Shown piece after piece: positions 1,336 through 39,037 of a stretch of DNA of 64,000 bases (positions are counted from its first letter, which is position 1; each line of letters begins with the position of its first letter). The stretch spans positions 21,376 to 85,375 of the forward strand of contig CAIRMR010000154.1 of the NCBI GenBank assembly GCA_903879715.1, given 5' to 3'. Source of the DNA: an uncultured Bacteroidales bacterium. Lineage in GTDB: Bacteria > Bacteroidota > Bacteroidia > Bacteroidales > UBA4417. The notes under the pieces were generated by a model that saw nothing but the letters and a program-made list of their open reading frames with translations, searched no databases and was not told the origin of the DNA. A program made the position numbers and the translations under genes.

Positions 1336-1444
1336 CCACAGATTACACAAATTTCGTTGATTGGGTTTACATCAATTTAGTCAATTTTATCATCTTAATA
1401 ATCTGCGATAGAAAAAAATCTGTGTTAATCTGTGAAATCTGTGG
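1336..1444. repeat. Inverted pair of short-period arrays (CACAGAT-type units) around a ~36-nt AT-rich spacer
   Basis: The left arm is ccacagattacacaaatttcgttgatt. The right arm is taatctgcgatagaaaaaaatctgtgttaatctgtgaaatctgtgg. The outer 9 nt ccacagatt (1336-1344) and aatctgtgg (1436-1444) are exact reverse complements. The element ends in tgtggcaaaat, as does the element at 38940-39037. Confidence 0.7.
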
Positions 1445-1673
1445 CAAAATGAAGGATTATTCGCCTTCGGCGATTGAGATCACTACGCTAAGTTACGGGG
1501 TGAATAGTTCCTGTACCGTTAATAGGGAAACACAAAATTGCCCTTAATACAATAATTATAATTTTTTATCGCTTAATTAAATTATGATGTTGAGTTGCAA
1601 ATAATTTGCCTTCAGCCGTTGAAGTTTCTATATTTTAAAACAATTTAACATGCATATTTCTCAATATCAGAAC

Positions 1674-1681
1674 TACCTTTG
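1674..1681 (+). promoter_or_regulatory. Candidate Bacteroidota sigma-A -7 box (TAnnTTTG)
   Basis: tacctttg lies 16 nt upstream of the ATG at 1697. Confidence 0.4.
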
Positions 1682-1696
1682 TAAAAAAAATATTCT

Positions 1697-3088
1697 ATGC
1701 GAGTAATACAAAGTCGTTTGCTTTTTGTTGCACTAATACTTATTCAGTCGTGCAGCTCAACTAAGCTACCTACCGAAAAACCAGCCGAAAACTACGTTCC
1801 TTTTAATTATGACCCGGTGCCTTCTACCATAAGCCTGCCGGTTGAAATGAAGGTAACTGCCCTTGAGGCCTTGCTCAACCGCCAGCTCAACGGTCTCCTT
1901 TATGCCGATACCAGCCTTGACAACAACGGCGGGGATAATATTATGGTTAAAGCCTGGAAAAAAGATAACATCAAAATCGGTTTCGAAAACGGACAGTTTA
2001 TATACCGTGTGCCGTTAAAACTTTGGATCAAGGCCGGATGGAAAATACAGCAATTTGGAATTTCCCTGTCCGATTACCGTGAAATGAATGCAGAGATTGC
2101 GCTAAAATTTCGCTCTTCGGTGGTTGTGAATAGGGACTGGTCGGTAACCACCGTTACCACTTCCGATGGCTATGACTGGATTACCAAACCCACTTTGAAA
2201 ATAGGCCCGGTTGATCTCCCGATAACGTTTATTGCGGATATGATTATCAAATACAATACTAAAACCATAAATACAGCAATTGATGCCGGATTAACTCAGA
2301 GCCTTGATCTGAAAACTACAGCCAAAGAAGCCTGGGTTGAAGTGCAAAAGCCTATGCTCCTATCAGAAGAATATGGATTATGGCTGCGGATAAGCCCGAA
2401 AACCATTTCCGCTATACCAATTACAGGCGGCAAAGGCATTATTAAACATGTATCAACCATACAGGGTGTTGCCGAGATTTTTACAGGAAAACAGCCGCCT
2501 TCGCGAATAAACCCTGTGCTTCCCGAACTGACAACTGCTACAAATCTGGGTGATGAATTCCTTGCAAATGTGGTTTCGTATATTGGCTACGATTACCTCG
2601 ACTCAATAACACGTCTGATGCTGGTTCACACTTCATATACTTTCGGAAAGAAGAAGATAACTATCACCGGAGTATCTGTTTACGGAAACGAAAGCAGAAT
2701 GATTATTGCTACTGATATGATCGGAAGTATAAACGGGAAGGTATATTTCTCCGGAATTCCTATGTACAGGATCAGCGATTCGAGTATAATTCTTAAGGAT
2801 CTTCAGTTCTCAATCCAGACTAAAAACGTATTACTGAAATCTGCTTCGTGGCTGGCAAACAGTGGTATCGAAAAGATGATTGGCAAAAAAATGGCTTACC
2901 CTATTGGTGTCGAAATACGTGAAACCTATGATATGATGGTGCAAAGTCTGAATAAATATGAAATTGGCCAGGGATTTATCATGACGGGTAAGCTAAATGG
3001 CATGGAGGTTCAGCAACCTGTGCTGGCTCCTGCCGGAATTATAGCCCCGGTAAGCATCACAGGTAAACTTTCAGTTAAACTGGAATAA
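1697..3088 (+). CDS. DUF4403-like lipoprotein
   Basis: 463 aa with a lipoprotein signal (LILIQSCSS). The length and N-terminal pattern (STISLPVEMKV..LEALLNRQL..LLY) resemble DUF4403 as I recall the family. Confidence 0.55.
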   Translation: MRVIQSRLLFVALILIQSCSSTKLPTEKPAENYVPFNYDPVPSTISLPVEMKVTALEALLNRQLNGLLYADTSLDNNGGDNIMVKAWKKDNIKIGFENGQFIYRVPLKLWIKAGWKIQQFGISLSDYREMNAEIALKFRSSVVVNRDWSVTTVTTSDGYDWITKPTLKIGPVDLPITFIADMIIKYNTKTINTAIDAGLTQSLDLKTTAKEAWVEVQKPMLLSEEYGLWLRISPKTISAIPITGGKGIIKHVSTIQGVAEIFTGKQPPSRINPVLPELTTATNLGDEFLANVVSYIGYDYLDSITRLMLVHTSYTFGKKKITITGVSVYGNESRMIIATDMIGSINGKVYFSGIPMYRISDSSIILKDLQFSIQTKNVLLKSASWLANSGIEKMIGKKMAYPIGVEIRETYDMMVQSLNKYEIGQGFIMTGKLNGMEVQQPVLAPAGIIAPVSITGKLSVKLE

Positions 3089-3348
3089 GCAGTTGAGTAA
3101 AACTTTTTCTGACGAGGAGCATCAAAGCTGGAAATGATTCGTGATTTCGGATTCGTGAATTATGATGCAAAAATTACATGATACCCAAATTAATCTGCAT
3201 TTACCGGCATTTTATTATTTTAGCAAAAGCATTTCATTTAATCTGTTCCTGTTACCGGCAATCATAGTTTTAATACTTTATAAAAACACTTTTTCTGGAA
3301 AGTCCAAACGAACATATCATTCAAACGCTTGATCACACAAGCTTCGAG

Positions 3349-3867
3349 GTGCTCTTTAAGAGTCATTTTGCAGGCATGTGCTTTTTTGCGCAGAAATATG
3401 TGAAAGATTTTGAAACAGCAAGGGAAATTGCCCAGGCCGCATTTATCAGCCTTTGGGAGAAACGCGAAACCATTGATATGAACCGGCCGGTGAAATCGTA
3501 TCTAGCCATGGTTATCCATAACAAATGTACCAACTACCTGCGCGATAACCGGAAGTTTGACCAGTACATTCTTAATATCGAAAACCTGCTGGAAGTCCCT
3601 GAGTATGACGGAGCCGACAGTATGGTTGAGGCTGAACTAAAACTAAAAATTGATTTATCCATCGCCGAACTTCCCGAGAAATGCAGGGAGATTTTCGTAC
3701 TCAGCCGCTACGAGAATCTTAAATACCAGGAAATTGCCGATAAATTACAGATTTCCGTAAAAACCGTGGAAACTCAAATGTCGAAAGCATTACAGCATCT
3801 GCGGATCAGGCTGGCGGAATACATAACGATAATTCTAGCCCTTGTAATGAGTTGTATTTATAAATAG
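3349..3867 (+). CDS. ECF-type RNA polymerase sigma-70 factor
   Basis: Region 2 (AQAAFISLWEKRE) and region 4 HTH (YENLKYQEIADKLQISVKTVETQMSKAL) are present. The start is GTG. The frame stays open upstream to 3274 without any ATG, GTG or TTG. Confidence 0.85.
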   Translation: MLFKSHFAGMCFFAQKYVKDFETAREIAQAAFISLWEKRETIDMNRPVKSYLAMVIHNKCTNYLRDNRKFDQYILNIENLLEVPEYDGADSMVEAELKLKIDLSIAELPEKCREIFVLSRYENLKYQEIADKLQISVKTVETQMSKALQHLRIRLAEYITIILALVMSCIYK

Positions 3868-3948
3868 AATGGCAGTAAGAAGGGGCGAGGAGCGACAGGG
3901 CGACTTCGTTCGGTGCAGGCAAGGAGATGGAAGAAAACTAACAGGGTG

Positions 3949-3976
3949 CTTCCGACTCCCGACTTCTGACTTCCGG
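3949..3976. repeat. Four phased heptamers: cttccga ctcccga cttctga cttccgg
   Basis: Read directly from the sequence. The array is preceded by cagggtg. A related array lies at 11149-11169, preceded by cagggca. Confidence 0.7.
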
Positions 3977-3994
3977 CCAAAATAAAATAACCCA

Positions 3995-4028
3995 CCATCA
4001 GGGTAAAATCAATTTGAAGTGTATTATT
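3995..4028 (+). promoter_or_regulatory. Two-block box CCATCAGGGTA-N12-AGTGTATTATT, copy A (upstream of fecR-like gene)
   Basis: A second copy of identical length lies at 9459-9492. Both flanking blocks are 11/11 identical between the copies. Confidence 0.35.
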
Positions 4029-4042
4029 CACAGGAAAGCCAA

Positions 4043-5077
4043 ATGAACGAGAATCCGACATATTACACCGACCTTATCACAAGGTACTTCTCCGGGGAAG
4101 CCACGGAAGATGAGTTGCGTGAGCTTTCGGAATGGCTTATAGCTGATCCAAATCACGAAGAGCTTTTTACACAATTACGTAAAACCTGGCTTTTAGTTGA
4201 AAAGAATAAGGTTTATTCATCTATTGATATAGAGAAGGACTGGCGGGCCTTTCAATCAAAACTGAACTCTATCGGGGGAAGTAGAGAAACGCCAATTGTT
4301 TTAGCTCTAAAGAAAAACATGAAAAGCCGGAATGCATTTCTCTCAAAAACCTGGAAAATAGCAGCATCTTTTACTATTTTGCTGGCAGCCTCATTTTTTT
4401 TGTATTTCAACCTTTCAAAGCTTAAGGACACAGTTGTTACAGCACATGACGCAAATATAGTGCATGTGCTTCCCGACGGCTCAGTAGTTTCGCTGCATGC
4501 CGGTTCACAGATCAGCTACGCCGCAAAATTTGATTCCAAAATCCGGAAAGTTGAATTGAAAGGTGAAGCGTACTTTGAAGTAGCTCATGATAAAACAAAA
4601 CCCTTTGTAGTGGCTTCGGGCGATGCAAGGGTAAAAGTGCTTGGAACAAAGTTCAACGTAAACACCAATACTTCCGACGGAACCATGGAAGTGGTTCTAA
4701 CAAGCGGGAAGGTTTCAGTATTTTTTAAGAGAAGTCCACAAAAAAACGTATCTCTTAATCCAGGCGAAAAAGCTGTATTGTTGGTTGATCAAAAGCAGAT
4801 CAGTAAATCGCCCAATGCTGATCCAAATTACATGGCATGGAAAACCAAGGTGCTGGTATTCGATAACGAAACACTGGCACAGGTTTTAAATACACTTCAG
4901 AATGTTTATCAAACTCCTGTTACACTTACTGATCCCGCTTTGTCCGAATGCCGCGTTACGGCTTCATTTGACGGACAGTCGCTTGAATCGGTATTACAGG
5001 TGATTAAAGAAACCTTAGATCTGCACGTGACACAGAACGGGAAAACCATTGAAATTTCAGGAAAGAGTTGCAGGTAA
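4043..5077 (+). CDS. FecR-family anti-sigma factor / transmembrane sensor
   Basis: N-terminal anti-sigma motif (LITRYFSGEATEDELRELSEWL), a single TM segment (WKIAASFTILLAASFFLYF), and a C-terminal FecR domain. I prefer the ATG at 4043 (MNENPTYY) over the ORF-track start at 4019. Confidence 0.85.
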   Translation: MNENPTYYTDLITRYFSGEATEDELRELSEWLIADPNHEELFTQLRKTWLLVEKNKVYSSIDIEKDWRAFQSKLNSIGGSRETPIVLALKKNMKSRNAFLSKTWKIAASFTILLAASFFLYFNLSKLKDTVVTAHDANIVHVLPDGSVVSLHAGSQISYAAKFDSKIRKVELKGEAYFEVAHDKTKPFVVASGDARVKVLGTKFNVNTNTSDGTMEVVLTSGKVSVFFKRSPQKNVSLNPGEKAVLLVDQKQISKSPNADPNYMAWKTKVLVFDNETLAQVLNTLQNVYQTPVTLTDPALSECRVTASFDGQSLESVLQVIKETLDLHVTQNGKTIEISGKSCR

Positions 5078-5170
5078 TTGTTTTTAAAAATTTATTTATC
5101 CTGATTTTTTTTAAAATTTAGCCAGATATAAATAACTATAAATGCATGTCATTTATCCGTAAATAGCTCT

Positions 5171-5776
5171 ATGAAAAAAATATTTCTACTTATTTTTTGC
5201 TCTGTTATTACTTTTTACAGCTATGCACAGAAAAGCGAATCCCGGAAAGGAAAAATAGGAATTACTTTCTCTACTTTTGGGGAAAATGATGTAATTCGTT
5301 CTGAACCCTTAATGGGTGAAGCTAGTTATAATTCAGATCAGTTTTACACCTTTGGCATTTTTTATACATACAAGCTGAATAATACATTTGATTTTGAAAC
5401 TGGTCTTGAATACGCAAAGCATAAAATAATAATAGACCCGTTTGATCCTCCGTATGATGAAGCTCCATCACGTGGTGCCCAGTTTTTCCTGGTCAATATT
5501 CCTATAACTGTACGGATTAATTTCCTGAGATATTGTTTCGTAAATGGAGGTTTAAACCTGGATTTTGATCCGACAGTTTCAAGCCCGATTGACAGCCAGA
5601 ACGGAATAGGCGCATTACTCGGATTAGGTTTGAAATACGATTCAAAATACGGCATTTCAGCTTTAGTAAACCCTTATATCAAGGCGCATTCATTGATATC
5701 ATTTTCACCAGTCGAAAATCGCCAGAGAGTCTTGGAATCCGGATTTAGATTTGGAATAATGTATAAATTGAAATAA
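5171..5776 (+). CDS. Small outer-membrane beta-barrel protein (porin-family-like)
   Basis: 201 aa with a signal peptide ending YAQ and an alternating aromatic/aliphatic beta-strand pattern. Confidence 0.55.
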   Translation: MKKIFLLIFCSVITFYSYAQKSESRKGKIGITFSTFGENDVIRSEPLMGEASYNSDQFYTFGIFYTYKLNNTFDFETGLEYAKHKIIIDPFDPPYDEAPSRGAQFFLVNIPITVRINFLRYCFVNGGLNLDFDPTVSSPIDSQNGIGALLGLGLKYDSKYGISALVNPYIKAHSLISFSPVENRQRVLESGFRFGIMYKLK

Positions 5777-5840
5777 AGAAATTGAGAAATCTGATACATA
5801 GATCATTTTTACCCCTTTTATGCATGAGTCTTCACTGAAA

Positions 5841-5926
5841 CACAAAAGAAACAAAAGTTTTAACTAACCCAATTCTCTTTTGTGTCTTTTGTGGTTAATA
5901 CTTTTATACACATAAAGAAACAAAAG
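5841..5926. repeat. ACAAAAG-unit hairpin plus a third direct copy
   Basis: cacaaaagaaacaaaag (5841-5857) pairs with cttttgtgtcttttgtg (5877-5893), giving 17 bp with 1 mismatch and a 19-nt loop. The direct copy cataaagaaacaaaag lies at 5911-5926. Confidence 0.7.
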
Positions 5927-5942
5927 CTCAATAAAATCTGAT

Positions 5943-8603
5943 TTGAACCTCGGAAAAACAATATACCGGATTCTGATTACCTGCCTGCTTTTAATAGTGG
6001 CCTCGGTTACTTTTGCCCAAAACCTGGATAATAAAATTTCTATCCGGACTAAAAATAAGCCACTTGGAGAAGTAATTGAACAAATCAGCGAAAAAGGGAA
6101 TATCCTGTTCTCATTTAACCCACAATCAATCCCTATCAATAAAAAAATCACTGTAATTGCGCGGAATACTTCTCTGTCGAAGATTTTTGAAATGGTTTTT
6201 ACTGCCAATGGAATCGATTATACGCTTTCGGAAAAACAGGTGATTTTGAAGCTTGCCAAACAGGAAACTCTTCCAAAACCTGACCTGGCAGTAAAACAAC
6301 TCCGCAAATATACCATCAGCGGAACCATCAGGGATAAAGCTACCGGAGAGGTTATTTTCGGTGCCAATGTGTATGATATTGCTTCGATGCAAGGCACCAC
6401 AAGTAACGCTTATGGGTTTTACTCCCTTACATTACCGATGGGCGAATACAGCATTACAAATTCCTATATTGGTTATTCTCCTGTTTCACAGGCCGTAAAC
6501 CTGATTAAAAATATAAATGCCACGATTGACCTTGAACTTTCGGCTATCGAAATGAATACGGTTGTTATAACTTCTGATCCTGACGCAGAGACAAAACATC
6601 TGAATCAAACGGGAGATATGCATTTTTCGCCCGCAGTGCTAAAACAGATTCCGGGATTTGCCGGCAATGTGGATGTTCTCAAGTCGCTGCAGAATGTCCC
6701 GGGAATTCTTACGTTCGGCGATGGATCTTCATTTTACTATGTGCGTGGTGGTAACAGTGATCAGAATCTTTTGCTGATCGACGAAGCGCCGATTTACAAT
6801 CCTTCACACCTGTTTGGTTTCTTTTCGGCCCTGGCTCCCGATGCCATCAAAGATGTGGTGGTTTACAAAGGCGATTTCCCGGCGAATTATGGCGGAAGGC
6901 TTTCGTCGGTGGTTGATATGCGTGCCAGGGAAGGCAATATGAAACGGCTTGGCTTTTCAGGTAACCTCGGACCGTACACAACTGACCTTACACTGGAAGG
7001 GCCCATTTTGAAAGAGAAAAGTTCATTCCTGATTTCGAGCCGTATTTCGAACCTGAACTGGTTAAAATTCCTTGATGATGGAGACCGTACCTATAAATTT
7101 AATTTTTACGATATCAACGCCAAACTCAATGTACGGCTCAATGACAATAACCGGCTTTTTCTCACGGCTTTCAAAGGTAATGATGAGTTTAACCGATATA
7201 ATAGTTTGAATACTAACACATTTGGAATCAGCTGGAAAAATGTTGCCAGCACCTTGCGATGGAATCATGTTTTTAACAGCCGCTTTTTCTCAAATACAAC
7301 AGCTTACATCAGCCGGTATAACTATTATCTTGATCTCTCGAAAGAACTCAATACGTACTGGACATCCTCCATTTCAAATGCGACTATCAAAACGGATTTT
7401 TCCTGGTTTCTGAATCCCAAAAACACGATTAAAACCGGTTTTGAGATCAACGGGCATAAGAGCAATCCCGGAAAATTGTATTTCACGAATGACGAAATTC
7501 CTGCAAGCCTGGCACAATATCAATCTACTGAATTAGCCATATACGCGAGTAATGAACAACAACTTGGGCAAAAGTTTCTTGCGCGTTATGGTCTCAGGAT
7601 TTCCCGATGGAACGATCTTGGTCCAACATCAGTTTACTTTTTTGATGGCAATCACAATGTAATTGACACAATTAAAGTTGCTAAAAATACGGTTTACAAA
7701 AGCTTTCTGAACTTTGAGCCACGTATCAGCCTGAACTTTGCCATCAGCGAAAACTCATCACTTCATGCCAATTACAACCATAATGTTCAGCATTTGCAGG
7801 TATTAAGTAACTCTACAAGCCCTTTTACTTCACTCGATGTATGGATTCCGAGCGGGCCAAATATAGCACCACAGAAAGCGGATCAGTTTTCACTCGGCTA
7901 TTTCAGCAAAATATTCCAACGTCAATTTGATTTCTCCGTCGAAGGGTATTACAAACGGCTTTATAACCAGGTAGATTATAAGGATCATCCCAACATGCTG
8001 ATAAATAAGCTGATTGAAGGTGAACTCAGGTTTGGTGATGGCTGGTCGTATGGCATTGAAACATTGCTGCGCAAAAACAAAGGGAAATTCACCGGCTGGA
8101 TAAGTTATGCGTGGTCGCGGTCGATGAAGCAGATTGCGGATGTAAATGAGGGGAAAATCTTTCCGGCTGCTCACGACAGGCCTCATAATTTCTGCATTAC
8201 TTTATCCTATACAACCGGCAAACACTGGAGTTTTTCGACGCATTGGATGTATCTCACAGGAGCTCCGTTTAGTTCGCCAACTGGGTTTTATTATGTAAAC
8301 GGCTATTCGGTGCCAGTGTATGGCGAAAAGAATAACGACAGGCTTCCCGATTATCACCGAATGGATTTATCTGTTTCGTATGCGCTAAGTAAGCCGGAAA
8401 AAAGATTTCAGCACAACCTGGTACTCACAATATATAACGCTTACGGAAGACACAATCCCTTCTCAATAAATTTTAACAAAACACAGGATGATAATGAAAA
8501 TATTGTAGTTCCGGCTAATCTCGAAGGTGATGTTGATCGTATCATAACTTCGATGTCTGTTGCCGGAGCGATCCCATCACTTAACTATACTTTCCGTTTC
8601 TGA
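5943..8603 (+). CDS. TonB-dependent receptor with N-terminal STN signalling domain and carboxypeptidase-regulatory-like domain
   Basis: 886 aa with a TTG start and a signal peptide. It has an STN-like segment (ISIRTKNKPLGEVIEQISEKGNILFSF...), a CarbopepD_reg-like segment (ISGTIRDKATGEVIFGANVY), a plug and barrel, and a C-terminal aromatic residue (YTFRF). Confidence 0.9.
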   Translation: MNLGKTIYRILITCLLLIVASVTFAQNLDNKISIRTKNKPLGEVIEQISEKGNILFSFNPQSIPINKKITVIARNTSLSKIFEMVFTANGIDYTLSEKQVILKLAKQETLPKPDLAVKQLRKYTISGTIRDKATGEVIFGANVYDIASMQGTTSNAYGFYSLTLPMGEYSITNSYIGYSPVSQAVNLIKNINATIDLELSAIEMNTVVITSDPDAETKHLNQTGDMHFSPAVLKQIPGFAGNVDVLKSLQNVPGILTFGDGSSFYYVRGGNSDQNLLLIDEAPIYNPSHLFGFFSALAPDAIKDVVVYKGDFPANYGGRLSSVVDMRAREGNMKRLGFSGNLGPYTTDLTLEGPILKEKSSFLISSRISNLNWLKFLDDGDRTYKFNFYDINAKLNVRLNDNNRLFLTAFKGNDEFNRYNSLNTNTFGISWKNVASTLRWNHVFNSRFFSNTTAYISRYNYYLDLSKELNTYWTSSISNATIKTDFSWFLNPKNTIKTGFEINGHKSNPGKLYFTNDEIPASLAQYQSTELAIYASNEQQLGQKFLARYGLRISRWNDLGPTSVYFFDGNHNVIDTIKVAKNTVYKSFLNFEPRISLNFAISENSSLHANYNHNVQHLQVLSNSTSPFTSLDVWIPSGPNIAPQKADQFSLGYFSKIFQRQFDFSVEGYYKRLYNQVDYKDHPNMLINKLIEGELRFGDGWSYGIETLLRKNKGKFTGWISYAWSRSMKQIADVNEGKIFPAAHDRPHNFCITLSYTTGKHWSFSTHWMYLTGAPFSSPTGFYYVNGYSVPVYGEKNNDRLPDYHRMDLSVSYALSKPEKRFQHNLVLTIYNAYGRHNPFSINFNKTQDDNENIVVPANLEGDVDRIITSMSVAGAIPSLNYTFRF

Positions 8604-9424
8604 TGAAAAAACTGCTGACATACCTGCTTTTCCTGTTGCTGCTTGTTTCGTGCGAGGAGCAAACGGACTGGGATTTGAAGAAGGCGGACACTGATTTTGT
8701 TGTAGTTGAAGGAATTATTACCAATGAGTTGAAAGTGCAATCTGTAACTATAATGAAACCGGTTATATCACTCAACGGAATTCCTGAACCGGTAAGTGGC
8801 GCAACTGTATTGGTTTCGTCAAACCTGTTAACTCATACGTTTCATGAAGATCTATTACACCCGGGAACTTATTTATCGGATAAAGCTTTTACTGGAATCA
8901 GAAATCAGACCTATTCCTTGCTGATCACTTCGGGCAGCAGGACTTACTCTTCAAAAGCAGTATTGTCGCCTGCAGTACAGGATTTTGTTTTTATTAACTA
9001 TCAAAAAGATGCTGATGATAACAAATACCGCTTTGTGAGTTCTCCCTTTCCTTACAATCCGTCAATATCGGCTATGTACGAGGTTCTGCTTGACTGGTCG
9101 TCAGCACCGGGTTATGAAAATGAAAACCCGGATTCGTGCAGGGCAAAACTCTATTATTATACCTTGCCAACATTGGATGTAAGTGAACTTTTTGCCCCGG
9201 GCATTGAAAAAATAACCTTTCCATCCGGGACTGTTATTACTGAACGCAGGTATTCCTTAACAGATGAACATGCTGCCTTTCTGCGTGCCGTTTTGCTCGA
9301 AACCACCTGGCAGGGCGGATATTTCAATACTGCTTCGGCAAATATTCCTACTAACCTGAGTTCCGGCGCGATGGGATTTTTTGGAGCTTGCGGAGTGGCC
9401 GAGAAGAGGGAGACGGCGAAATAG
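8603..9424 (+). CDS. DUF4249-like lipoprotein (usual partner of this receptor class)
   Basis: Its start overlaps the receptor stop (TGATG). It has a lipobox (LLLLVSCEE) and an FVVVEGIITNE motif. Confidence 0.65.
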   Translation: MKKLLTYLLFLLLLVSCEEQTDWDLKKADTDFVVVEGIITNELKVQSVTIMKPVISLNGIPEPVSGATVLVSSNLLTHTFHEDLLHPGTYLSDKAFTGIRNQTYSLLITSGSRTYSSKAVLSPAVQDFVFINYQKDADDNKYRFVSSPFPYNPSISAMYEVLLDWSSAPGYENENPDSCRAKLYYYTLPTLDVSELFAPGIEKITFPSGTVITERRYSLTDEHAAFLRAVLLETTWQGGYFNTASANIPTNLSSGAMGFFGACGVAEKRETAK

Positions 9425-9458
9425 TTATTTAAAAATAATTTTAAAATAATTCAACTCT

Positions 9459-9492
9459 CCATCAGGGTAGAAAACAACTTGAGTGTATTATT
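9459..9492 (+). promoter_or_regulatory. Two-block box CCATCAGGGTA-N12-AGTGTATTATT, copy B
   Basis: It lies 50 nt upstream of the ATG at 9543. See copy A at 3995-4028. Confidence 0.35.
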
Positions 9493-9542
9493 AGCGTAAA
9501 CAGTTAATCACTCAACAAAAAATAAACTAAACACAAAAGACT

Positions 9543-10478
9543 ATGAAAACCAAAAAATTCTCGAACCTGGCAATCATTCTGGTTTCTGCAATTGTGCTCA
9601 CTTTTGCTTCCTGTGCTAAGGACGATCTCAATCAGGGTACAGCGGATCCTTCCTCGCTTGAGCAATTATCAGCAGATGAAACCAACGTGGAAAGCGTTTT
9701 GAAAGATGCTGAAAGCGATATTACTTCAGTGATGTCGAATAATAGCGGAAGTTTTAAATCAACATCCTGGCGTCCCTGTGGTGCATCTATTGATTCACTG
9801 GCAATTGCAAACGATACCATTACAATCCGGATTACATTCAATGGCCTTACATGCAACGATAAACGCAGCAGAACCGGGAAAATTGAATTAAAAACAAAAG
9901 TTGGCACACAGTGGAACCAGGTAGGAGCGGCAGTGGTTTGCAAATTCATCGATTTCAATGTAACCCGCGTTGCTACAGGCAAATCAGTAAAACTTAACGG
10001 AACCAAAACGATCGTAAATGTGATTGGCGGACACCGCTGGCAAGTTGGAACTCTTATTACTTCTTATGTTGAGAGGATAAGCGGATCGATGCAGGCCAGT
10101 TTCGACAACGGCACCAACCGCACCTGGAATATTGCCCGTCAAATAACGTATACCGGAACCCCAAATCAATATATTCTCACCATTGATGGTTTCGGTTCAA
10201 CCGGCAATTATCAAAACCTGGTTGTATGGGGAAGCAACAGACAAGGGGAAGAATTTTTCACACAGATAACTCAATCAGTAGTATGCCGTCAGGCCTGCGA
10301 TTGGGATCCTGTTTCAGGAATCAAGATTCATCAAATTCCATCGGATATTAAAAGCGCTACCATTACTTTTGGGTACAATGCTAACAATGAGCCTGTCACA
10401 GGTGATGAATGCCCTGCACGTTACCGTATTGATTGGCAGAGAAATAATAATTCAGGCACAAACTTTCTTCCGCTCTAG
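9543..10478 (+). CDS. Hypothetical lipoprotein
   Basis: 311 aa with a lipobox (LTFASCAKD). I do not recognise a family. Confidence 0.6.
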   Translation: MKTKKFSNLAIILVSAIVLTFASCAKDDLNQGTADPSSLEQLSADETNVESVLKDAESDITSVMSNNSGSFKSTSWRPCGASIDSLAIANDTITIRITFNGLTCNDKRSRTGKIELKTKVGTQWNQVGAAVVCKFIDFNVTRVATGKSVKLNGTKTIVNVIGGHRWQVGTLITSYVERISGSMQASFDNGTNRTWNIARQITYTGTPNQYILTIDGFGSTGNYQNLVVWGSNRQGEEFFTQITQSVVCRQACDWDPVSGIKIHQIPSDIKSATITFGYNANNEPVTGDECPARYRIDWQRNNNSGTNFLPL

Positions 10479-10511
10479 ATTTAAAAACCTGCAAATACGT
10501 TTGACGGAGAC

Positions 10512-10549
10512 AATACAAAGGCTGATTCGAAAGGATCAGCCTTTGTATT
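10512..10549 (+). terminator. Stem-loop after the lipoprotein gene
   Basis: aatacaaaggctgat / atcagcctttgtatt forms a 15-bp perfect stem. No clear U-tract follows. Confidence 0.45.
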
Positions 10550-10627
10550 AGTAAATATAACATCAGCAAGTTAACTCCTGAACATTGTTCACAAGTTTGG
10601 CGTTGTATAAACCAGAAAACAAGTTCT

Positions 10628-10990
10628 ATGAAAATAATCGGACAAATCCTGATTGCAATAATTGCGCTGGAGCATTTATATTTCCTTTGGCTTGAAATGT
10701 TTGCCTGGGAAACCAAAGGAAAGGATGTATTTAAGATGCTTCCTCAAAACCTGTTTAAGCCTACCAAAGTTCTGGCGGCTAACCAGGGACTTTACAACGG
10801 TTTCCTGGCCGCCGGGCTGATATGGCCATTATTCATTACCAATGATTTGTGGAGTTTTTATATTTCCGTTTTCTTCCTGAGTTGCGTTAGTATTGCAGGC
10901 ATTTATGGCGCGTTAACAGCCTCGAAAAGGATCTTTATTGTACAGGCTTTACCGGCAATTATAACTTTGGTTTTGATTCATTTTAGATAA
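10628..10990 (+). CDS. DUF1304 family membrane protein
   Basis: 120 aa with 4 TM segments and the signature LAANQGLYNGFLAAGL. Confidence 0.8.
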   Translation: MKIIGQILIAIIALEHLYFLWLEMFAWETKGKDVFKMLPQNLFKPTKVLAANQGLYNGFLAAGLIWPLFITNDLWSFYISVFFLSCVSIAGIYGALTASKRIFIVQALPAIITLVLIHFR

Positions 10991-11148
10991 GGGGTTCTTC
11001 TGCGAAGTGAATGGAATTATTTTTTACTGGTCCTAAGACCGAAGTAACCAGCTTGCTGTAATATACCAACTGATAATACTAAGTTGGAAGCTATTAATTA
11101 TCATACGACATGGTGCTTTATTCAAAGGATAAAGTAGTATTCAGGGCA

Positions 11149-11169
11149 CTTCCGACTTCCGACAACTCC
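11149..11169. repeat. Phased heptamers: cttccga cttccga caactcc
   Basis: Read directly from the sequence. The array is preceded by cagggca and is related to 3949-3976. Confidence 0.6.
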
Positions 11170-11230
11170 GGTTGAACCACTAAATTTACAGCAGACCCAA
11201 ATATTTTTTGCCCACGTTAATTATTTTTCC

Positions 11231-11238
11231 TACTTTTG
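11231..11238 (+). promoter_or_regulatory. Candidate his operon -7 box (TAnnTTTG)
   Basis: tacttttg lies 18 nt upstream of the leader ATG. A TTTG lies about 22 nt further upstream (11206-11209). Confidence 0.5.
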
Positions 11239-11256
11239 CATCATCAAACTAAAAAA

Positions 11257-11313
11257 ATGAACTTTAACCAATTACACCATCATCATCTGCATACCATCTC
11301 AGGCATGGAGTAA
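11257..11313 (+). CDS. Histidine operon leader peptide, MNFNQLHHHHLHTISGME
   Basis: 18 codons, with 5 His in 6 consecutive codons (CAC CAT CAT CAT CTG CAT). It sits between the promoter box and a strong terminator, directly upstream of hisG. Confidence 0.65.
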   Translation: MNFNQLHHHHLHTISGME

Positions 11314-11342
11314 GTGATATTTGTAATTTGTAAAATATTTCG

Positions 11343-11378
11343 AAACCCGTCTGAGTAAACAGCCGGGTTTTTTGTTTT
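11343..11378 (+). terminator. Intrinsic terminator (attenuator) between the leader peptide and hisG
   Basis: aaacccg (11343-11349) pairs with cgggttt (11364-11370), extendable with one mismatch (cccgtctg/cagccggg). It is followed by ttttgtttt. Confidence 0.65.
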
Positions 11379-11421
11379 AACTCCCTTCGCATCGTTTACT
11401 CAGCATTAACAAACAAAAAGC

Positions 11422-12279
11422 ATGAGTAAATTAAAAATTGCAATTCAGAAATCAGGCCGGCTTAGTGAAAAATCGCTGGAACTCTTAAAAGAGTGCGGCA
11501 TCAAACTCTCAAATGGCGACCGCAAGCTAAAAACAGAAGCAAAAAATTTCCCCATCGAAGTACTTTTCCTTCGCGACGACGATATTCCTCAATATGTGGA
11601 ACAAGGCGTGGCGGATATTGGCATTTTGGGCGAGAACGAAGTGTGGGAGAAACATAAGGATGTGACCACCGTCGAAAAACTGGGATTTGCCAACTGCAAA
11701 CTTTCATTAGCCATTCCTAGAGATGAAAAGTATACCGGTTTAGCTTACTTCAACAACAAAAGGATAGCAACCAGCTATCCTAAAATTCTGCAAAAATTTT
11801 TCGATGAGAAAAACATCCGGGTCGAAATTGAAGAAATCGGCGGAAGCGTGGAAATTGCAACTGGTATTGGTTTGGCTGACGCCATTTTTGATATCGTAAG
11901 CACCGGCAGCACATTAGTGATGAATGGACTGAAAGAAGCAGAAGTCGTTTTTAAGAGCGAAGCTGTTTTGATTTCCAACAAAAACCTGGACACTGAAAAA
12001 CAACAAATCCTTGACAAGCTTCTTTTCAGAATTAAAGCCGTAAGGAACTCGTCCGAAAATAAATACATCCTGCTCAACGCTCCGAACAGTTCCATCGCAC
12101 AGATTTCTGCTATTTTACCGGGCATGAAATCACCAACTGTTTTACCCCTGGCTGAAGAAGGCTGGAGCAGCATTCACTCGGTAGTAAAGGAAGATCAATT
12201 CTGGGATATTATTGACCAGCTTCAGGCTCTGGGTGCCCAGGGAATCCTTGTAATTCCGATTGAGAAGATGGTCCTCTAA
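11422..12279 (+). CDS. hisG: ATP phosphoribosyltransferase (long form)
   Basis: 285 aa that matches the HisG long form as I recall the family. It is the first gene of the his operon. Confidence 0.95.
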   Translation: MSKLKIAIQKSGRLSEKSLELLKECGIKLSNGDRKLKTEAKNFPIEVLFLRDDDIPQYVEQGVADIGILGENEVWEKHKDVTTVEKLGFANCKLSLAIPRDEKYTGLAYFNNKRIATSYPKILQKFFDEKNIRVEIEEIGGSVEIATGIGLADAIFDIVSTGSTLVMNGLKEAEVVFKSEAVLISNKNLDTEKQQILDKLLFRIKAVRNSSENKYILLNAPNSSIAQISAILPGMKSPTVLPLAEEGWSSIHSVVKEDQFWDIIDQLQALGAQGILVIPIEKMVL

Positions 12280-12354
12280 TCCCGACTTCAAGGTCGGTGC
12301 TCAGACCTCGAATCATCCCTCAACCCCGACCTTCAGTTCGGGGCCTAAGACCCC
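12278..12354. repeat. Two ~32-nt direct repeats, each containing a short hairpin, in the hisG-hisD spacer
   Basis: aatcccgacttcaaggtcggtgctcagacctc (12278-12309) versus aaccccgaccttcagttcggggcctaagacccc (12322-12354). They are roughly three-quarters identical with one indel. The internal stems are ccgac/gtcgg and ccccga/tcgggg. Confidence 0.55.
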
Positions 12355-12359
12355 CAAAT

Positions 12360-13643
12360 ATGGAAAAATATATAAATCCAAACAAAAAAAACTGGCAAAA
12401 ACTCACTCAAAGGCCAACAGCCGAACAACTGTCCCTCGACGGAATAGTAAGCCAGGTCTTTTCGGAAATTCGAAAAGACGGTGATAAGGCTGTAAGGAAA
12501 TTCAGTCTTCTCTTCGACAAAGTTGAGCTGGAATCGTTTGCTATACCTCAAAAAGCAATTGAAGCTGCTTCGGTAAAAGTACCTGCTGGGCTGAAAGCCG
12601 CTATCCAATTGGCAAAAAGCAATATTGAAAAGTTCCATGCTGCACAAATCGAAACTCCGAAAATAATTGAAACCACCAAAGGTGTAGAATGCTGGCGCGA
12701 AAGCCGTGGAATTGAAACCGTTGGGATTTATATTCCGGGCGGAACGGCTCCATTGTTTTCGACTGTTCTGATGCTGGGTATTCCGGCTAAACTGGCCGGT
12801 TGCAAAAATATTATTCTTTGCACGCCGCCTGATAAAAACGGGGAAATCAACCCGGCTATTCTATACACAGCCGATCTTGTGGGAATTACTTCAGTTTTTA
12901 GTGTTGGCGGAATTCAAGCCGTTGCAGCTATGGCTTTTGGCACTGAAAGTATTCCCAAAGTGAATAAGATTTTTGGCCCCGGGAACCAATATGTAACAGC
13001 AGCTAAACAGGCTGCTCAGCAATTAGGCGTAGCTATCGATATGCCGGCCGGTCCAAGCGAAGTGCTGATAATTGCTGATAAAAGCTGTAACCCTGCGTTT
13101 GTGGCAGCAGATCTCCTTTCGCAAGCCGAACATGGAGCCGACAGCCAGGTAATTTTGCTTTCAGATAATGAAACTCTTATTGACAAGATACTTTCAGAAT
13201 TAGAACAACAGTTGGAAGCGTTGCCACGAAAGGAGATTGCTGCGAAAGCGTTGGAAAACAGCAAAGCCATTCTTCTGGAAGACATAAACGAATGTATTGA
13301 ATTCAGCAACAGTTATGCTCCTGAACACCTGATTCTGGCTGTAAAAGAAGCTAGAAATCTGATCCCTCAAATTTCAAAAGCAGGTTCCGTATTCCTTGGA
13401 AACTATAGTTGTGAAAGCGCCGGCGATTATGCCAGCGGAACCAATCACACCTTGCCGACAAACGGGTATGCACGAAGTTACAGCGGAGTTTCACTCGATA
13501 GTTTTGTTACCAAAATCACATTCCAGGAATTATCGAAAGAAGGCATCCGGAATATCGGCCCTTCCATTGAACTTATGGCCGAAGCGGAACAGTTGTTTGC
13601 ACATAAAAATGCAGTAACATTGAGATTGACGAAGTACGATTGA
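12360..13643 (+). CDS. hisD: Histidinol dehydrogenase
   Basis: HisD-like throughout, with a conserved SQAEHG motif. I prefer the ATG at 12360 (MEKYINPNKK). The 21 upstream codons in the ORF track are a translation of the spacer repeat. Confidence 0.95.
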   Translation: MEKYINPNKKNWQKLTQRPTAEQLSLDGIVSQVFSEIRKDGDKAVRKFSLLFDKVELESFAIPQKAIEAASVKVPAGLKAAIQLAKSNIEKFHAAQIETPKIIETTKGVECWRESRGIETVGIYIPGGTAPLFSTVLMLGIPAKLAGCKNIILCTPPDKNGEINPAILYTADLVGITSVFSVGGIQAVAAMAFGTESIPKVNKIFGPGNQYVTAAKQAAQQLGVAIDMPAGPSEVLIIADKSCNPAFVAADLLSQAEHGADSQVILLSDNETLIDKILSELEQQLEALPRKEIAAKALENSKAILLEDINECIEFSNSYAPEHLILAVKEARNLIPQISKAGSVFLGNYSCESAGDYASGTNHTLPTNGYARSYSGVSLDSFVTKITFQELSKEGIRNIGPSIELMAEAEQLFAHKNAVTLRLTKYD

Positions 13644-13891
13644 CGAAGTACGATTGACGAATGACGAAATGAGATTGACGAAGTATGATTGACGATGTAC
13701 GATGTACGATGTACGAACGACGATGTACGATTGACGATGTACGATTGACGATGTACGATTGACGATGTACGATTTACGATTGACGATGTACGAATGATGA
13801 TGTACGATTGACGATGTACGATGTACGAACGACGATGTACGATTGACGATGTACGATGTACGAACGACGATTAACGATTAACGAATAACGA
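13619..13891 (+). repeat. Tandem array of 38 phased heptamers (consensus T-K-K-A-C-G-A) plus one degenerate leading unit
   Basis: Hand-phased from 13626 to 13891 without any phase slip. The units are ttgacga, tgtacga, agtacga, acgacga, ttaacga and minor variants. The first three units encode the last hisD codons and its TGA stop. Confidence 0.95.
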
Positions 13892-13929
13892 TTGGCCGAA
13901 AATCGATTTTGAACATTAATTAAAGCATC

Positions 13930-14958: not shown

Positions 14959-15078
14959 ACCACGGAGGCACAGAGAACACGGAGAAACACAGAGGAATTC
15001 TCAGAAAAAGTTAAAAGTTATTTTCAAATAAACAGTTTAATCTCTGTGAACCTCTGTGCCCTCCGTGTCTCCGTGGTT
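14958..15078. repeat. Imperfect palindrome built from inverted arrays of CAC(A/G)GAG units (hisC-hisB spacer)
   Basis: The left arm is aaccacggaggcacagagaacacggagaaacacagagg (14958-14995). The right arm is tctctgtgaacctctgtgccctccgtgtctccgtggtt (15041-15078). The outer 10 nt aaccacggag/ctccgtggtt are exact complements. The spacer is 45 nt and AT-rich. Confidence 0.9.
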
Positions 15079-15094
15079 AACAAATAAATCAATA

Positions 15095-16189: not shown

Positions 16190-16195
16190 TTGAAA

Positions 16196-16689: not shown

Positions 16690-16693
16690 ACAG

Positions 16694-25218: not shown

Positions 25219-25268
25219 GGGTGTTCTATTTAATTATTACACTCTTGTTTATTTCGGGGGACAATCAA

Positions 25269-25303: not shown

Positions 25304-25346
25304 ACCAAAGTCGTCATAAATTAAAGATAACATTAAAACCACCCTA

Positions 25347-31426: not shown

Positions 31427-31463
31427 TTTCTTCTCAAAAATAGTACTATACAATTTGAATACC

Positions 31464-31554
31464 AACCAAGGATTAACGATTTTTGATTTTAGAAGAAGTA
31501 GTATCAGACTGCGACAGCACTTGCATCACAAATCGTTAATCAGTGTTCCTTGTT
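31464..31554. repeat. Long-range inverted repeat in the mreB-mreC spacer
   Basis: attaacgattt (31472-31482) pairs with aaatcgttaat (31530-31540), 11 bp exact. The pairing is extended by aaccaagg/ccttgtt across a 7-nt bulge. Confidence 0.6.
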
Positions 31555-31600
31555 CTTAAATCAAATAATACCCGTTTAACAAACGATACCGTAGCTGACT

Positions 31601-36047: not shown

Positions 36048-36159
36048 CTTATTTCAGGATCATCTTTTCCCTAAGAATTAACCACGGAGGCTCGGAGATC
36101 ACAGAGAGACACGGAGTTTAGTTTTAATATTTGGAGTTAATTTAAAAACCTGAAATAAG
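36048..36159. repeat. Single-arm CACGGAG-type array enclosed by an 11-bp perfect inverted repeat
   Basis: cttatttcagg (36048-36058) pairs with cctgaaataag (36149-36159). Inside lies aaccacggaggctcggagatcacagagagacacggag (36080-36116). Its first 12 nt, aaccacggaggc, are identical to the start of the 14958 element. Confidence 0.7.
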
Positions 36160-36774: not shown

Positions 36775-37060
36775 TTCTGATTATTTTTGATTTTGATGTG
36801 CGAAAATAAGATAAAAAATCAGATTTGGGGCTTGGTGTTTATAACTAAATTTACAGATAAAGTCAAAGCCTCAACTATTTTTAACTGATTTTCTGCAATT
36901 TGATCTAAAGTGTGATATCTTCGTTGTTGTGATGTTTGAAGTAAGCCGGGAATTTAGTTTATAGAGTTGTATATATAGGGCCTTAGTATACTATGATGAA
37001 AACGGGAAGTATTATAATCTGATATTTTATAGTAAGTTATGCATTAAAAAATAATCAGCC

Positions 37061-37891
37061 ATGAAAAAATCAGCACTTTTATTATTTATCATGTTTGCAG
37101 TAATCAGTTGTACAAAAGATGAGATTCCTTCGGTTACACCAAAATTAAAAAACTGCAGAATTGAATACATTTTTTTTAAGGATGAAATAACAATTCTGGA
37201 CTATCAATCTATCAATTTCGCGCCCTATGATTCTACGGTTATCGCCTGTTCATATACCTATGCGGATGACAAATTGACAAAGACAAAAGGTGGATTTGTT
37301 GCAGTACCTTCGGGATCAAACTTTTCTAACTTTTTATTCTCAACAGATGCATATGATTCCATTCACTTTGAAAATAATACAATTTACACCTATGCTAAGA
37401 TTAATTTCGGGGAATTTATCCATACAGACATTTTGAGTCCGACTATATTTACCCTGGATTCTCAAAATAAACTTATAAAAATCAGCAAAAAAAATGCTTT
37501 TCATCCATACGGTCTTGAATTAAATTATACCTACTCCGAAAACCTGGTTACCGAAACATATAACAATGGCTTAACCCGCCGAAAATTCTACCTTGAAAAC
37601 AATAACCTCGTTAAAGTAGTAACTGAAGTTTATGATTTACATGGTGCACTTTATTCTAAAAAAGAAATTCTATTTGAGGGATTTGACAATAAGCCCAATC
37701 CTTTTAAAAATATGTACTATGTGAAAGGCGCTTTTTTTCGGGCTTTCTCGGAAAATAATTACCAAAAGGTTACTGTAACTGAATACTCCTATTTATTAGA
37801 CGGAACTTTCGGTATTAATTCTACATGGTGGTTTACTATGCCCTTCGATTATAATGCTGATGGGTATCCTAAATTTGGGGATTACGAATAA
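37061..37891 (+). CDS. Hypothetical lipoprotein
   Basis: 276 aa with a lipobox (FAVISCTKD). I do not recognise a family. Confidence 0.55.
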   Translation: MKKSALLLFIMFAVISCTKDEIPSVTPKLKNCRIEYIFFKDEITILDYQSINFAPYDSTVIACSYTYADDKLTKTKGGFVAVPSGSNFSNFLFSTDAYDSIHFENNTIYTYAKINFGEFIHTDILSPTIFTLDSQNKLIKISKKNAFHPYGLELNYTYSENLVTETYNNGLTRRKFYLENNNLVKVVTEVYDLHGALYSKKEILFEGFDNKPNPFKNMYYVKGAFFRAFSENNYQKVTVTEYSYLLDGTFGINSTWWFTMPFDYNADGYPKFGDYE

Positions 37892-38195
37892 GACCATTCT
37901 TTAACCTGAAACAATTTCACCCAGCCATTCTATGTGATTTCGAGAAAGACAAGTAAAAATACCTGCCTGGATCATATCAGATTTTCAACCTTTAGCTCCT
38001 GTTTTAAAGACTGGAAGCTACTATTCCTTTGGCGCTAACGCTTTGTCAACTTTTAAGATATTGTGGATTTACTTCTGTGTACAGTTACATTTTTCAAAAC
38101 CGGAAGAATTATCCTATTTTTGCAAAGCTAAATATGCTTAATTCCTAACAGGGCAAGTAAGCAAGCAAGTATCTACAATTCAAAATCAAAAAAGC

Positions 38196-38918
38196 GTGCT
38201 AAAAACAATCAGCTGGTTTACATACCTTTGGTGGAGTATGTTGATTCCACGGTTTAAACTGATAAGACTCAACAGGCAGGGCAGGATCGCCGAAAGGGAT
38301 GCCTGCGCGCATGCCATTGCACGAAAATGGGCACAATCGGGCCTCAGAATGAATGGCTCTGCCATCCGGGTAATTGGCATTGAAAATGTCCCGCAAACCG
38401 GCGGAGTTCTGTTTGTAGCCAATCATCAGAGCAATTTCGACATACCGATCTTCGTTGGGCATGTTCCCCGCGATAAAGGTTTTATCGCTAAGCTGGAATT
38501 GTTAAAAGTTCCCACTTTCAGTCGGTGGATGAAGTATATCGGCTGCATTTTTATCGACAGGAAAGATCCGCGCCAATCACTGACAGCTATCAACGAAGCT
38601 GCAGAACGACTAAAAACAGGTCATTCAATTGTTATATTTCCCGAAGGAACCCGAAGCGCGGATGGTACTGTAGCGCCGTTTAAAGCCGGCGGACTCAGGT
38701 TAGGCTTAAAGGCAGGTGTGCCCATTGTACCGGTAACTATAAGCGGATCAAAGAATATTATGCCAAAAGGCACTTCAATTATCCGGTCGGCCAAAGTAAA
38801 AGTTATTGTTTCTCCTCCGCTGTTATGGGAAGATTATAAGGGGATGGACTCAAATCAAATCTCTGAAAAAGTCAGGAATATCATTATTTCGAATCTTGTA
38901 ACCAATCATGTCATTTAA
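38196..38918 (+). CDS. plsC: 1-acyl-sn-glycerol-3-phosphate acyltransferase
   Basis: HX4D motif (NHQSNFD) and FPEGTRS motif. The start is GTG. A TAnnTTTG box (tatttttg) lies at 38115-38122. Confidence 0.85.
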   Translation: MLKTISWFTYLWWSMLIPRFKLIRLNRQGRIAERDACAHAIARKWAQSGLRMNGSAIRVIGIENVPQTGGVLFVANHQSNFDIPIFVGHVPRDKGFIAKLELLKVPTFSRWMKYIGCIFIDRKDPRQSLTAINEAAERLKTGHSIVIFPEGTRSADGTVAPFKAGGLRLGLKAGVPIVPVTISGSKNIMPKGTSIIRSAKVKVIVSPPLLWEDYKGMDSNQISEKVRNIIISNLVTNHVI

Positions 38919-38939
38919 GGCATTAACAAACAGATATAT

Positions 38940-39037
38940 GCCACAGATTTCGCCGATTTCGCAGACAAATATTCAATGATTATGATCCCATTTTATAAAA
39001 AACCTCAAAAGCAGTCTAAATTTGCAAAATTTGTGGC
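38940..39037. repeat. Inverted pair of 9-nt-period arrays (CACAGATTT-type)
   Basis: The left arm is gccacagatttcgccgatttcgcagacaaat (38940-38970). The right arm is gtctaaatttgcaaaatttgtggc (39014-39037). The termini gccacagattt/aaatttgtggc are complementary with 1 mismatch. The element ends in tgtggcaaaat, as does the element at 1336-1444. Confidence 0.7.

Follow-up and report, generated by a model that had tools for sequence, protein, structure and literature searches.

The stretch of DNA considered here, 64,000 nucleotides from an uncultured Bacteroidales bacterium (GTDB lineage UBA4417; assembly GCA_903879715.1, contig CAIRMR010000154.1, C154:21376-85375) and referred to below as the window, carries in the gaps between its genes rows of short degenerate repeat units, often set as two inverted arms around a spacer. 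The period-7 arrays among them are confirmed as a real population that extends through the whole genome. The best reading of this population is that it is mixed, being made up of gene-bearing foldback cassettes, of gene-less derivatives and solo arms, and of arrays grown by slippage. Each arm is built from consecutive 7-10-nt units that keep a core constant and leave the spacer positions free, and complete elements hold a single small gene, which encodes either a four-helix-bundle protein of family PF05635, enclosed by arms of many different words, or a nuclease-like GxxExxY protein of the PD-(D/E)XK fold (PF13366), enclosed by arms of CRCnGAK units. Most copies are gene-less and consist of conserved arms around unrelated loops or of single arms. 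The elements enter gene junctions whole, give way to other elements at the corresponding junction of related species and are tolerated by operons, and their copy number varies widely among the species of one genus. We lean toward the view that the window loci are members or remains of a genome-wide population of small foldbacks whose dispersal involves the cargo protein.

The source assembly comprises 6.07 Mb in 223 contigs at 40% G+C. The gene content of the window is typical of Bacteroidota, with an extracytoplasmic function (ECF) sigma / FecR / TonB module and a hisGDCBHAFIE operon, and the closest HisD proteins (78-83% identity) belong to metagenome-assembled genomes (MAGs) labelled Bacteroidales or Lentimicrobiaceae. 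Gene positions throughout the genome were taken from a crude mask of open reading frames (ORFs) of at least 100 amino acids, assigned longest first, which covers 84% of the genome. Arrays were detected with Tandem Repeats Finder (TRF), period-7 arrays being counted at 2.8 copies or more and a third-order Markov sequence serving as control, and the folding energy of each locus was compared with that of shuffled sequence and expressed as z. For every gene (n = 4153) an inverted-flank score was obtained by local alignment of the 200-nt upstream flank to the reverse complement of the downstream flank, exact 6-mer matching being too strict for degenerate arrays.

Period-7 arrays in the source genome

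Exact 6-mers recur at a distance of 7 nt 6185 times per Mb of intergenic DNA, 13 times the value for shuffled sequence (465), the figure for coding DNA being 433. Harmonics of this recurrence appear at 14, 21, 28 and 35 nt, together with a lesser excess at a distance of 8. TRF likewise found 569 period-7 arrays in 0.95 Mb of intergenic DNA and 15 in the Markov control, an excess of the kind required by the reading in the initial annotation, which was made from the window alone. Its placement of the arrays between genes also extends to the genome as a whole, with 86% of period-7 arrays lying outside ORF-called genes, where only 16% of the genome is found. Arrays occur in 17.6% of gaps of at least 30 nt and make up 4.1% of intergenic DNA. 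The notion of one grammar written in many words is borne out by the 169 canonical heptamers among 685 arrays of this genome, the common words including AAAATAG (57 arrays), AAGTCGG/CTTCCGA (43 arrays, the second commonest), AAATTCC (35), AATAGTG (22) and AACCCCT (20). Another word, AAACCCT (9 arrays), coincides with the 7-mer of plant-type telomeres (unit TTTAGGG), probably by chance.

Other parts of the initial description need amendment. Inverted pairing, which it considered the prevailing state, is found at 7 of 13 loci in the window, but genome-wide a strong inverted partner within 1.2 kb accompanies only 107 of 871 arrays (12%). Nor do the window loci constitute the single family that had been proposed; they fall into several. 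The inverted loci of the window fold far better than shuffled sequence (z -2.8 to -8.3), whereas the solo arrays do not. Judged by position in the gap, 536 arrays fit an order in which the G-rich arm comes first and 232 do not. This order looks alike from either strand and is therefore uninformative on transcription and on replication, and a polarity of G-rich and C-rich arms relative to either process was rejected.

Foldback families and the genes they enclose

The CACGGAG family is represented in the window by a gene-less foldback without assigned strand in the hisC-hisB gap (14958-15078; 37-nt arms; minimum free energy (MFE) -50.4 kcal/mol; z -8.3) and by a solo arm on the plus strand (36080-36116), which repeats the 37-nt architecture of 14958-14994 and has no partner nearby. 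Its arms read AACCACGGAGGCACnGAGnnCACnGAGnnACACnGAG. In the genome, 68 arms of this family have their cores at fixed offsets (spacing 8, 9 and 10 nt), and about 20 complete foldbacks of 81-254 nt share conserved 37-nt arms around loops that are unrelated in sequence and length. One copy of 621 nt, on contig C101, encloses an intact GxxExxY gene (PF13366, TIGR04256; C101:3786-4199). The CACAGAT family accounts for two further gene-less foldbacks of the window, neither with an assigned strand, at 1333-1447 (arms 1333-1353 and 1427-1447, 86% complementary; z -3.7) and at 38940-39037 (z -3.3). The ends of the latter, GCCACAGATT...AATTTGTGGC, match those of 1333-1447 and of copies on C82, C114 and C193, and the gene-bearing copy of the family is a GxxExxY pseudogene (C193:70102-70425) lying between the same arms as those of 1333-1447.

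The GxxExxY genes of the source genome lie between CACGGAG, CACAGAT, CACGAAT or CAGAAT arms. In 8 other genomes, CRCnGAK units make up the arms around 16 or 17 of 20 such genes. When three CRCnRAK units were required as a strict pattern, 146 intergenic arms matched, as did 1 in the control. Pairs of CRC-type arms are arranged with the outer end outward in 23 cases and reversed in 2, and the spacers of the CACGGAG-type pairs (14958-15078 and about 20 more) measure 35 nt at the 10th percentile and 123 nt at the 90th. Among 45 genomes of the genus, the CACGGAG arm in its exact form, ACCACGGAGnCACnGAG, is present in 0 to 93 copies per genome; in 76 other families of the order it hardly occurs, and the same signature read backwards gave 0 everywhere. 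Coordinates compared by eye place a GxxExxY gene no more than about 200 nt from a ACCACGGAGnCACnGAG arm in five or more further species of the genus. Among genomes G051-G094 of the same genus, G062 holds a private arm variant, ACCACGGAGCCAC, nearly all copies of which are on one strand.

The two arms of a CACGGAG element are not perfect complements. Likeness is lower between the arms within an element than between arms drawn from different elements (0.70 vs 0.755 overall; 0.27 vs 0.44 at variable columns), and when the arm pairing was permuted 10,000 times the mean likeness equalled or exceeded the observed value every time. Concerted evolution of the two arms was rejected on this ground. The base before the fourth core differs between the arms in 18 of 23 pairs, mostly as A against T (p = 0.004), so that the two strands differ when in hairpin form. 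Such a built-in mismatch may be what a single-strand-specific enzyme would need.

The other enclosed gene family, PF05635, is found in the window as a complete cassette of 504 nt on the plus strand between hisB and hisH (16190-16693), consisting of a left arm of GTAAG-type units (16194-16251), a gene (16295-16669) and a right arm of CTTAC-type units (16655-16690). The 124-residue product matches PF05635 (E = 3e-38) and TIGR02436 and is 23S-IVS/Avd-like; the Avd model of diversity-generating retroelements (DGRs) gave a weak match of 46.9 bits, under its 80-bit cut-off. Both predicted structures, MFE and centroid, show the arms paired, and the inverted-flank score of the gene lies at the 99.1st percentile. 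The source genome holds 13 PF05635 genes above cut-off, about nine of which proved on inspection to be bracketed by inverted arrays, each with a word of its own. These words include AAAATAG, AAGTCGG (around the gene on C7), AAATTCC, AATAGTG and AACCCCT. Eight of the 13 genes reach at least the 99th percentile of the inverted-flank score, where 0.13 would be expected (binomial ~1e-13, 4153 genes). Of 16 PF05635 genes in 12 other genomes, among them Acidobacteriota and an Ignavibacteria-labelled MAG, 11 lie between inverted unit arrays, again in varied words. The occurrence of CRCnGAK arms at GxxExxY genes and of other words at PF05635 genes indicates that the grammar of the arms depends on the cargo family. 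A second four-helix-bundle gene of the window (24646-25218, minus strand), which matches the four-helix-bundle suffix domain TIGR04258 (E = 5.5e-22) and PF05635 weakly, has an AGACAAT-unit palindrome directly upstream (25248-25324; z -7.1; minus-strand entry 24646-25324). A ParE-toxin gene (24120-24428, minus strand) lies directly downstream of it.

The enrichment near particular small genes that the initial annotation had anticipated is thus strong for four-helix-bundle genes and extends to the PD-(D/E)XK genes of the GxxExxY type; the GIY-YIG and nucleotidyltransferase genes that it also named did not turn up among the highest flank scores. Besides GxxExxY with its unit-array arms, the other small genes that lead the flank-score list are RAYT/Y1 (REP-associated tyrosine transposase; REP, repetitive extragenic palindrome) and DUF559 genes, which have non-periodic hairpins of their own. 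Sixteen PF01797 matches occur in the source genome, and the RAYT-type Y1 genes at C85:4832-5413, C206:17764-18393, C167:5827-6378 and C126:6311-6937 have REP-like hairpins such as TAGTCCGGGCGCGACTnnnAGTCGCACCCGGACTA. RAYT was rejected as the partner of the unit arrays, the RAYT genes of this genome being flanked by these other, classic REP hairpins. Two DUF559 genes (C55:11652-12068 and C102:16275-16700) are flanked by CACCCCCTCTCTT...AAGAGAGGGGGTG hairpins. Matched inverted arrays, one in the gap on either side, also bracket some ordinary genes, namely folA, an aspartokinase gene and a gene for a LacI-type regulator (C102:7192-7903, C53:20776-22409 and C94:45745-47238).

Array density also follows cargo-gene counts across genomes. 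The sample comprised 20 further genomes chosen by PF05635 count (26-100 kb each), or 21 with the source genome. Arrays of period 7 or 8 numbered 1.1-2.0 per 100 kb in five genomes without PF05635 and 9-18 per 100 kb in eight genomes with 8-16 PF05635 copies, the source genome among them. Over the 21 genomes, arrays per 100 kb correlated (Spearman) with PF05635 per Mb (0.74), with PF13366 per Mb (0.82) and with RAYT/Y1 (0.69), and arrays of periods 5, 10, 11 and 13 did not follow PF05635 (rho -0.20). The counts of PF05635 and PF13366 themselves go together (rho 0.90). The association between array density and cargo genes is real and singles out no one protein. When only the arrays within the 13-kb his loci were counted, rho with PF05635 was 0.19, a comparison that is underpowered.

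Turnover at gene junctions and competing explanations

Comparison with related genomes (among them L001-L003, G001, G002, G003 and G005) at syntenic gene junctions revealed the presence and absence of whole elements that the initial annotation had thought worth seeking. Where both hisB and hisH are present, as in 11 relatives examined, the two genes abut or overlap in 11 of 11 cases, and the junction sequence itself was read in L001 and L003. The junction in these relatives has no room for a hairpin, so the arms of the cassette arrived with the gene or after it. The mreB-mreC gap of the window holds a foldback of AACGATT type, without assigned strand (31464-31554; z -2.8), within a block of about 140 nt (~31427-31580). 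This block is present in G003 as well, and the gap measures about 35 nt in G001, G002 and G005. At the hisC-hisB gap, four related genomes hold elements of three families: the window and L001 share the CACGGAG foldback, which is orthologous with its loop included; L002 has a TCGGAAG/GTAAG structure; and L003 has a second copy of the mreB-mreC family. No direct repeat of the kind left by target-site duplication flanks any of 16 elements, and the flanks are A/T-rich. Of the two generating mechanisms that had been suggested from the window, cassette insertion fits the part of the population seen at hisB-hisH, mreB-mreC and hisC-hisB, its counterpart, excision, not having been observed. Nothing supports the other, templated repeat synthesis; the long arrays look like products of slipped-strand growth (periods 14, 21, 35 and 49; 60 vs 273 nt at one junction).

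These findings can be combined into a mechanism in which the cargo protein would recognise rows of its own unit, probably in hairpin or single-stranded DNA form, and this recognition would promote the spread of such rows, much as RAYT does with REP or Ssn with NTS. The built-in mismatch that distinguishes the strands fits such recognition. Slipped-strand mispairing would in addition lengthen or shorten arrays in unit register, the array of 38 units between hisD and hisC being a probable case; growth and shrinkage of this kind are suggested by the length difference between orthologous arrays together with the higher-order TRF periods.

Several observations weigh against dispersal by the cargo protein. 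No movement of an element has been seen directly, no target-site duplication was found, and neither cargo protein has a demonstrated activity on unit-row repeats. As many as 88% of arrays are without a detectable inverted partner, and for common words, ACGATTT among them, the source genome has no copy that bears a gene. The best homolog of the cassette protein in the 12 other genomes is 47% identical, which is too distant to follow the co-inheritance of protein and word. Within the genus, the total GxxExxY count does not track the number of CACGGAG arms; the gene is present in 42 of 45 genomes, however, which makes this comparison uninformative. RAYT also tracks the arrays across genomes, so a general load of selfish DNA could explain the cross-genome link, and the partial correlation between arrays and PF05635 given RAYT is only 0.45 (p = 0.04). 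Those correlations, moreover, come from 21 genomes picked by PF05635 count and ignore phylogeny and assembly quality.

A wider claim is, taken as a whole, rather unlikely. PF05635 and PF13366 proteins would be the sequence-specific partners of the rows flanking them, each lineage reading its own word and propagating its cassette together with a large population of gene-less foldbacks and solo arms. The unexplained heptamer repeats of many bacterial phyla, known as short tandemly repeated repetitive sequences (STRRs) and long simple-sequence repeats (LSSRs), the paired 'global regulator' sites of Geobacter and the ORF-bearing intervening sequences (IVSs) of rRNA would then form one protein-linked class of foldbacks apart from REP/RAYT, and the mismatch built into the arms would mark the strand that is processed.

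That the arrays are ordinary LSSRs produced only by replication slippage in a lineage with a tendency to 7-nt slips, with the inverted pairs and the small genes incidental, is decidedly unlikely. Heptamers are the commonest LSSRs in many bacteria, according to the summary of Mrazek 2007 in PMC4679880, and are ascribed to polymerase slippage (PMC4679880; PMC4692102); the differing lengths of orthologous arrays, the higher-order periods and the solo state of most arrays all agree with such an origin, which is retained here for part of the population. Slippage cannot, however, give 68 copies of a 37-nt arm with the core spacing fixed at 8, 9 and 10 nt. It also leaves unexplained the outer-end-out pairing (23 vs 2), the same families at non-orthologous sites of different genomes, the roughly 100-fold enrichment of matched inverted arms at two gene families, and the joint gain of a gene and its arms at one junction.

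Selection for a cis-regulatory function, whether as operator-like rows for global regulators or as RNA hairpins that serve as RNase III substrates or protect upstream mRNA within operons (in the manner of REP, STRR or IVS stems), would account for the positions at cistron junctions and for the strong folds, and it has parallels: IVS stems enclosing the same gene family are RNase III substrates, the IVS of Coxiella contains GACAGAT heptamers (PMC4990558), and paired TCTCCGTS repeats of Geobacter are proposed as regulator sites (PMC2700814). It is nonetheless very unlikely. In co-directional gaps the sense-strand arm mismatches comprise 63 that are G:U-compatible and 87 of A:C type, and selection for sense-strand RNA pairing was rejected because there is no excess of G:U. 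An element's own two arms resemble each other less than arms of separate elements do, the adjoining genes are functionally unrelated, close relatives differ at the same junction, and copy number spans 0 to 93 within one genus. The arrays have no terminator T-run, none of the 14 terminator-like sites in positions 1-20000 coincides with an array locus, and a search of the window against Rfam gave no match at any array.

Least probable is that hairpins came first and that small selfish genes or repeats landed in the loops of pre-existing foldbacks, the arms not being the genes' own; this would suit the unrelated loops within one arm family, the long loci with nested arrays and small embedded hairpin repeats, and the bracketing of folA, aspartokinase and other ordinary genes by matched inverted arrays, but hisB-hisH lacks room for a hairpin in 11 of 11 relatives, with none seen in the sequence of L001 and L003, and the arms go with the cargo, GxxExxY having CRCnGAK in several phyla and four-helix-bundle genes having other words.

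Known repeat systems and the remaining loci of the window

STRR heptanucleotide repeats are said to have been described in cyanobacteria by Mazel et al. in 1990. The arrays studied here resemble STRRs and LSSRs in being tandem 7-nt units of many words, in lying in intergenic and intercistronic DNA, in their patchy distribution among lineages and in varying in length between relatives. Those repeats are treated as products of slippage or as possible regulator sites, with no associated gene, in PMC4692102 and PMC4679880, whereas the arrays of this genome often have defined arms, are paired in inverted orientation and fixed order, and in complete copies enclose PF05635 or PF13366 genes. PMC4679880 also records heptamer repeats, unexplained, in a few Bacteroidetes, and a paper of 2015 states that no detailed study of heptanucleotide repeats exists (PMC4692102).

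The IVS in the 23S rRNA of Coxiella burnetii has an S23p ORF, 28-bp inverted repeats and GACAGAT heptamers that vary in number between strains, and it is excised by RNase III (PMC4990558). It thus shares with the cassette a PF05635/S23p protein between terminal inverted repeats and heptamers adjoining the ORF. The Coxiella element, however, occupies helix 45 of 23S rRNA and RNase III takes it out of the RNA, whereas the cassette lies between protein-coding genes of the his operon, at hisB-hisH, and the window contains no rRNA match; most related elements of the source genome are, moreover, gene-less. In Geobacter metallireducens, class 2 sites form 21 opposite-strand pairs at variable distance, each site consisting of three TCTCCGTS[Y] repeats, the reverse complement of CACGGAGA, and other classes are made up of heptanucleotide repeats, four or five in number (Aklujkar et al. 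2009, PMC2700814). The class 2 definition given there, three tandem CACGGAGA/TCTCCGTS units in opposite-strand pairs, also describes 14958-15078 and about 20 further pairs of the source genome. Geobacter belongs to another phylum, and the accessible part of that paper describes the sites as presumed sites of global regulators and makes no link to GxxExxY genes, four-helix-bundle genes or mobility (PMC2700814).

The closest systems in kind are REP/RAYT and NTS/Ssn. As in the REP/REPIN-RAYT system (PMC3116915), a small gene is flanked by an inverted hairpin repeat, many copies are gene-less and several sequence families occur in one genome; here, however, the cargo genes do not encode Y1 transposases, the arms are rows of short units, and the RAYT genes of the same genome have classic REP hairpins. 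NTS/Ssn, as presented in PMC11893778, likewise combines a small nuclease gene with a short repeat that occurs hundreds of times and is recognised by the nuclease, but Ssn is a GIY-YIG protein with shown activity, whereas the cargo described here has a PD-(D/E)XK fold or a four-helix bundle and its functions are predicted. Miniature inverted-repeat transposable elements (MITEs) share terminal inverted repeats (37-nt arms in about 20 complete elements) and the many gene-less copies beside a few gene-bearing ones; the foldbacks differ from them in that they have no recognised transposase and no target-site duplication and that their gene-less interiors are unrelated between copies. Heptamer repeats and paired CACGGAG sites are already in print, and the literature searched contained nothing that ties PF05635 or PF13366 genes to dispersed foldbacks of unit arrays.

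On the account favored here, heptamer repeats that have long gone unexplained in bacteria would gain a concrete and biochemically testable origin, many of them being the arms of small inserted foldbacks that, when complete, hold one or the other of two small genes of so far only predicted function. The elements are also likely break points of short-read assemblies. Should it be true that the cargo proteins bind or cut short rows of units specifically, they could serve as tools, as Ssn does. For annotation, the elements matter because they create false ORF extensions inside operons, as the initial annotation had noticed: the GTG 'start' of the hisB ORF at 15056 falls within the right arm of the 14958-15078 foldback, and the final codons and stop codon of hisD are supplied by the array that follows it.

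This hisD-hisC array (13619-13894, plus strand) is a long solo array of about 38 TKKACGA units, with TRF periods of 14, 21, 35 and 49 at scores of up to 258 and no fold above that of shuffled sequence. The same words occur at this junction in L003, where they fill about 60 nt, the array of the window being 273 nt long. Its TTGACGA/TGTACGA units give rise to six sigma-70-like matches (TTGACG or ATGACG, 17 nt, TACGAT or TATGAT) at 13626-13808 on the plus strand; these come purely from the periodicity and are probably meaningless in Bacteroidota.

The arrays that the initial annotation had located in the window are all present, apart from two loci that required correction. One of these, 12278-12354 on the plus strand between hisG and hisD, was rejected as a heptamer array and consists instead of two small CCCGAC..GTCGGG hairpins (z -1.5) belonging to a repeat family separate from the unit arrays. 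This CCCGACCTTnnGGTCGGGG hairpin repeat is kept at the same junction in L002 (1562-1660) and L003 (5990-6020). The other, 3133-3170 on the plus strand, is a marginal TCGTGAT-like array, whose four units are visible in the sequence but gave no TRF hit at score 30 and a z of -1.7. Two solo CTTCCGA arrays, both on the plus strand, are short, with about four units at 3949-3976 (TRF score 40) and 2.3 perfect TRF copies at 11148-11169. A foldback of CACAAAAG units without assigned strand occupies 5838-5926 (arms 5838-5857 and 5877-5896, 90% complementary; z -4.0), with an extra unit at its right end and the terminus GTGGTT, as in the CACGGAG family.

Elsewhere in the genome, the long composite loci C24:2889-3483, C62:8234-8673, C56:122484-122788 and C16:8074-8547 consist of unit arrays alternating with small embedded hairpin repeats, such as TACCCCAAACCCCnnnnGGGGCTTAAnGTAGACGAG and CTGTCACTGCGAGGAACGAAGCAGGAAC, arranged as tandem blocks about 115-130 nt long. 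The sole Rfam match in the window is a DUF805 RNA (RF03081) at 40758-40825 on the plus strand, which scored 64.4 bits against a gathering threshold of 51.1.

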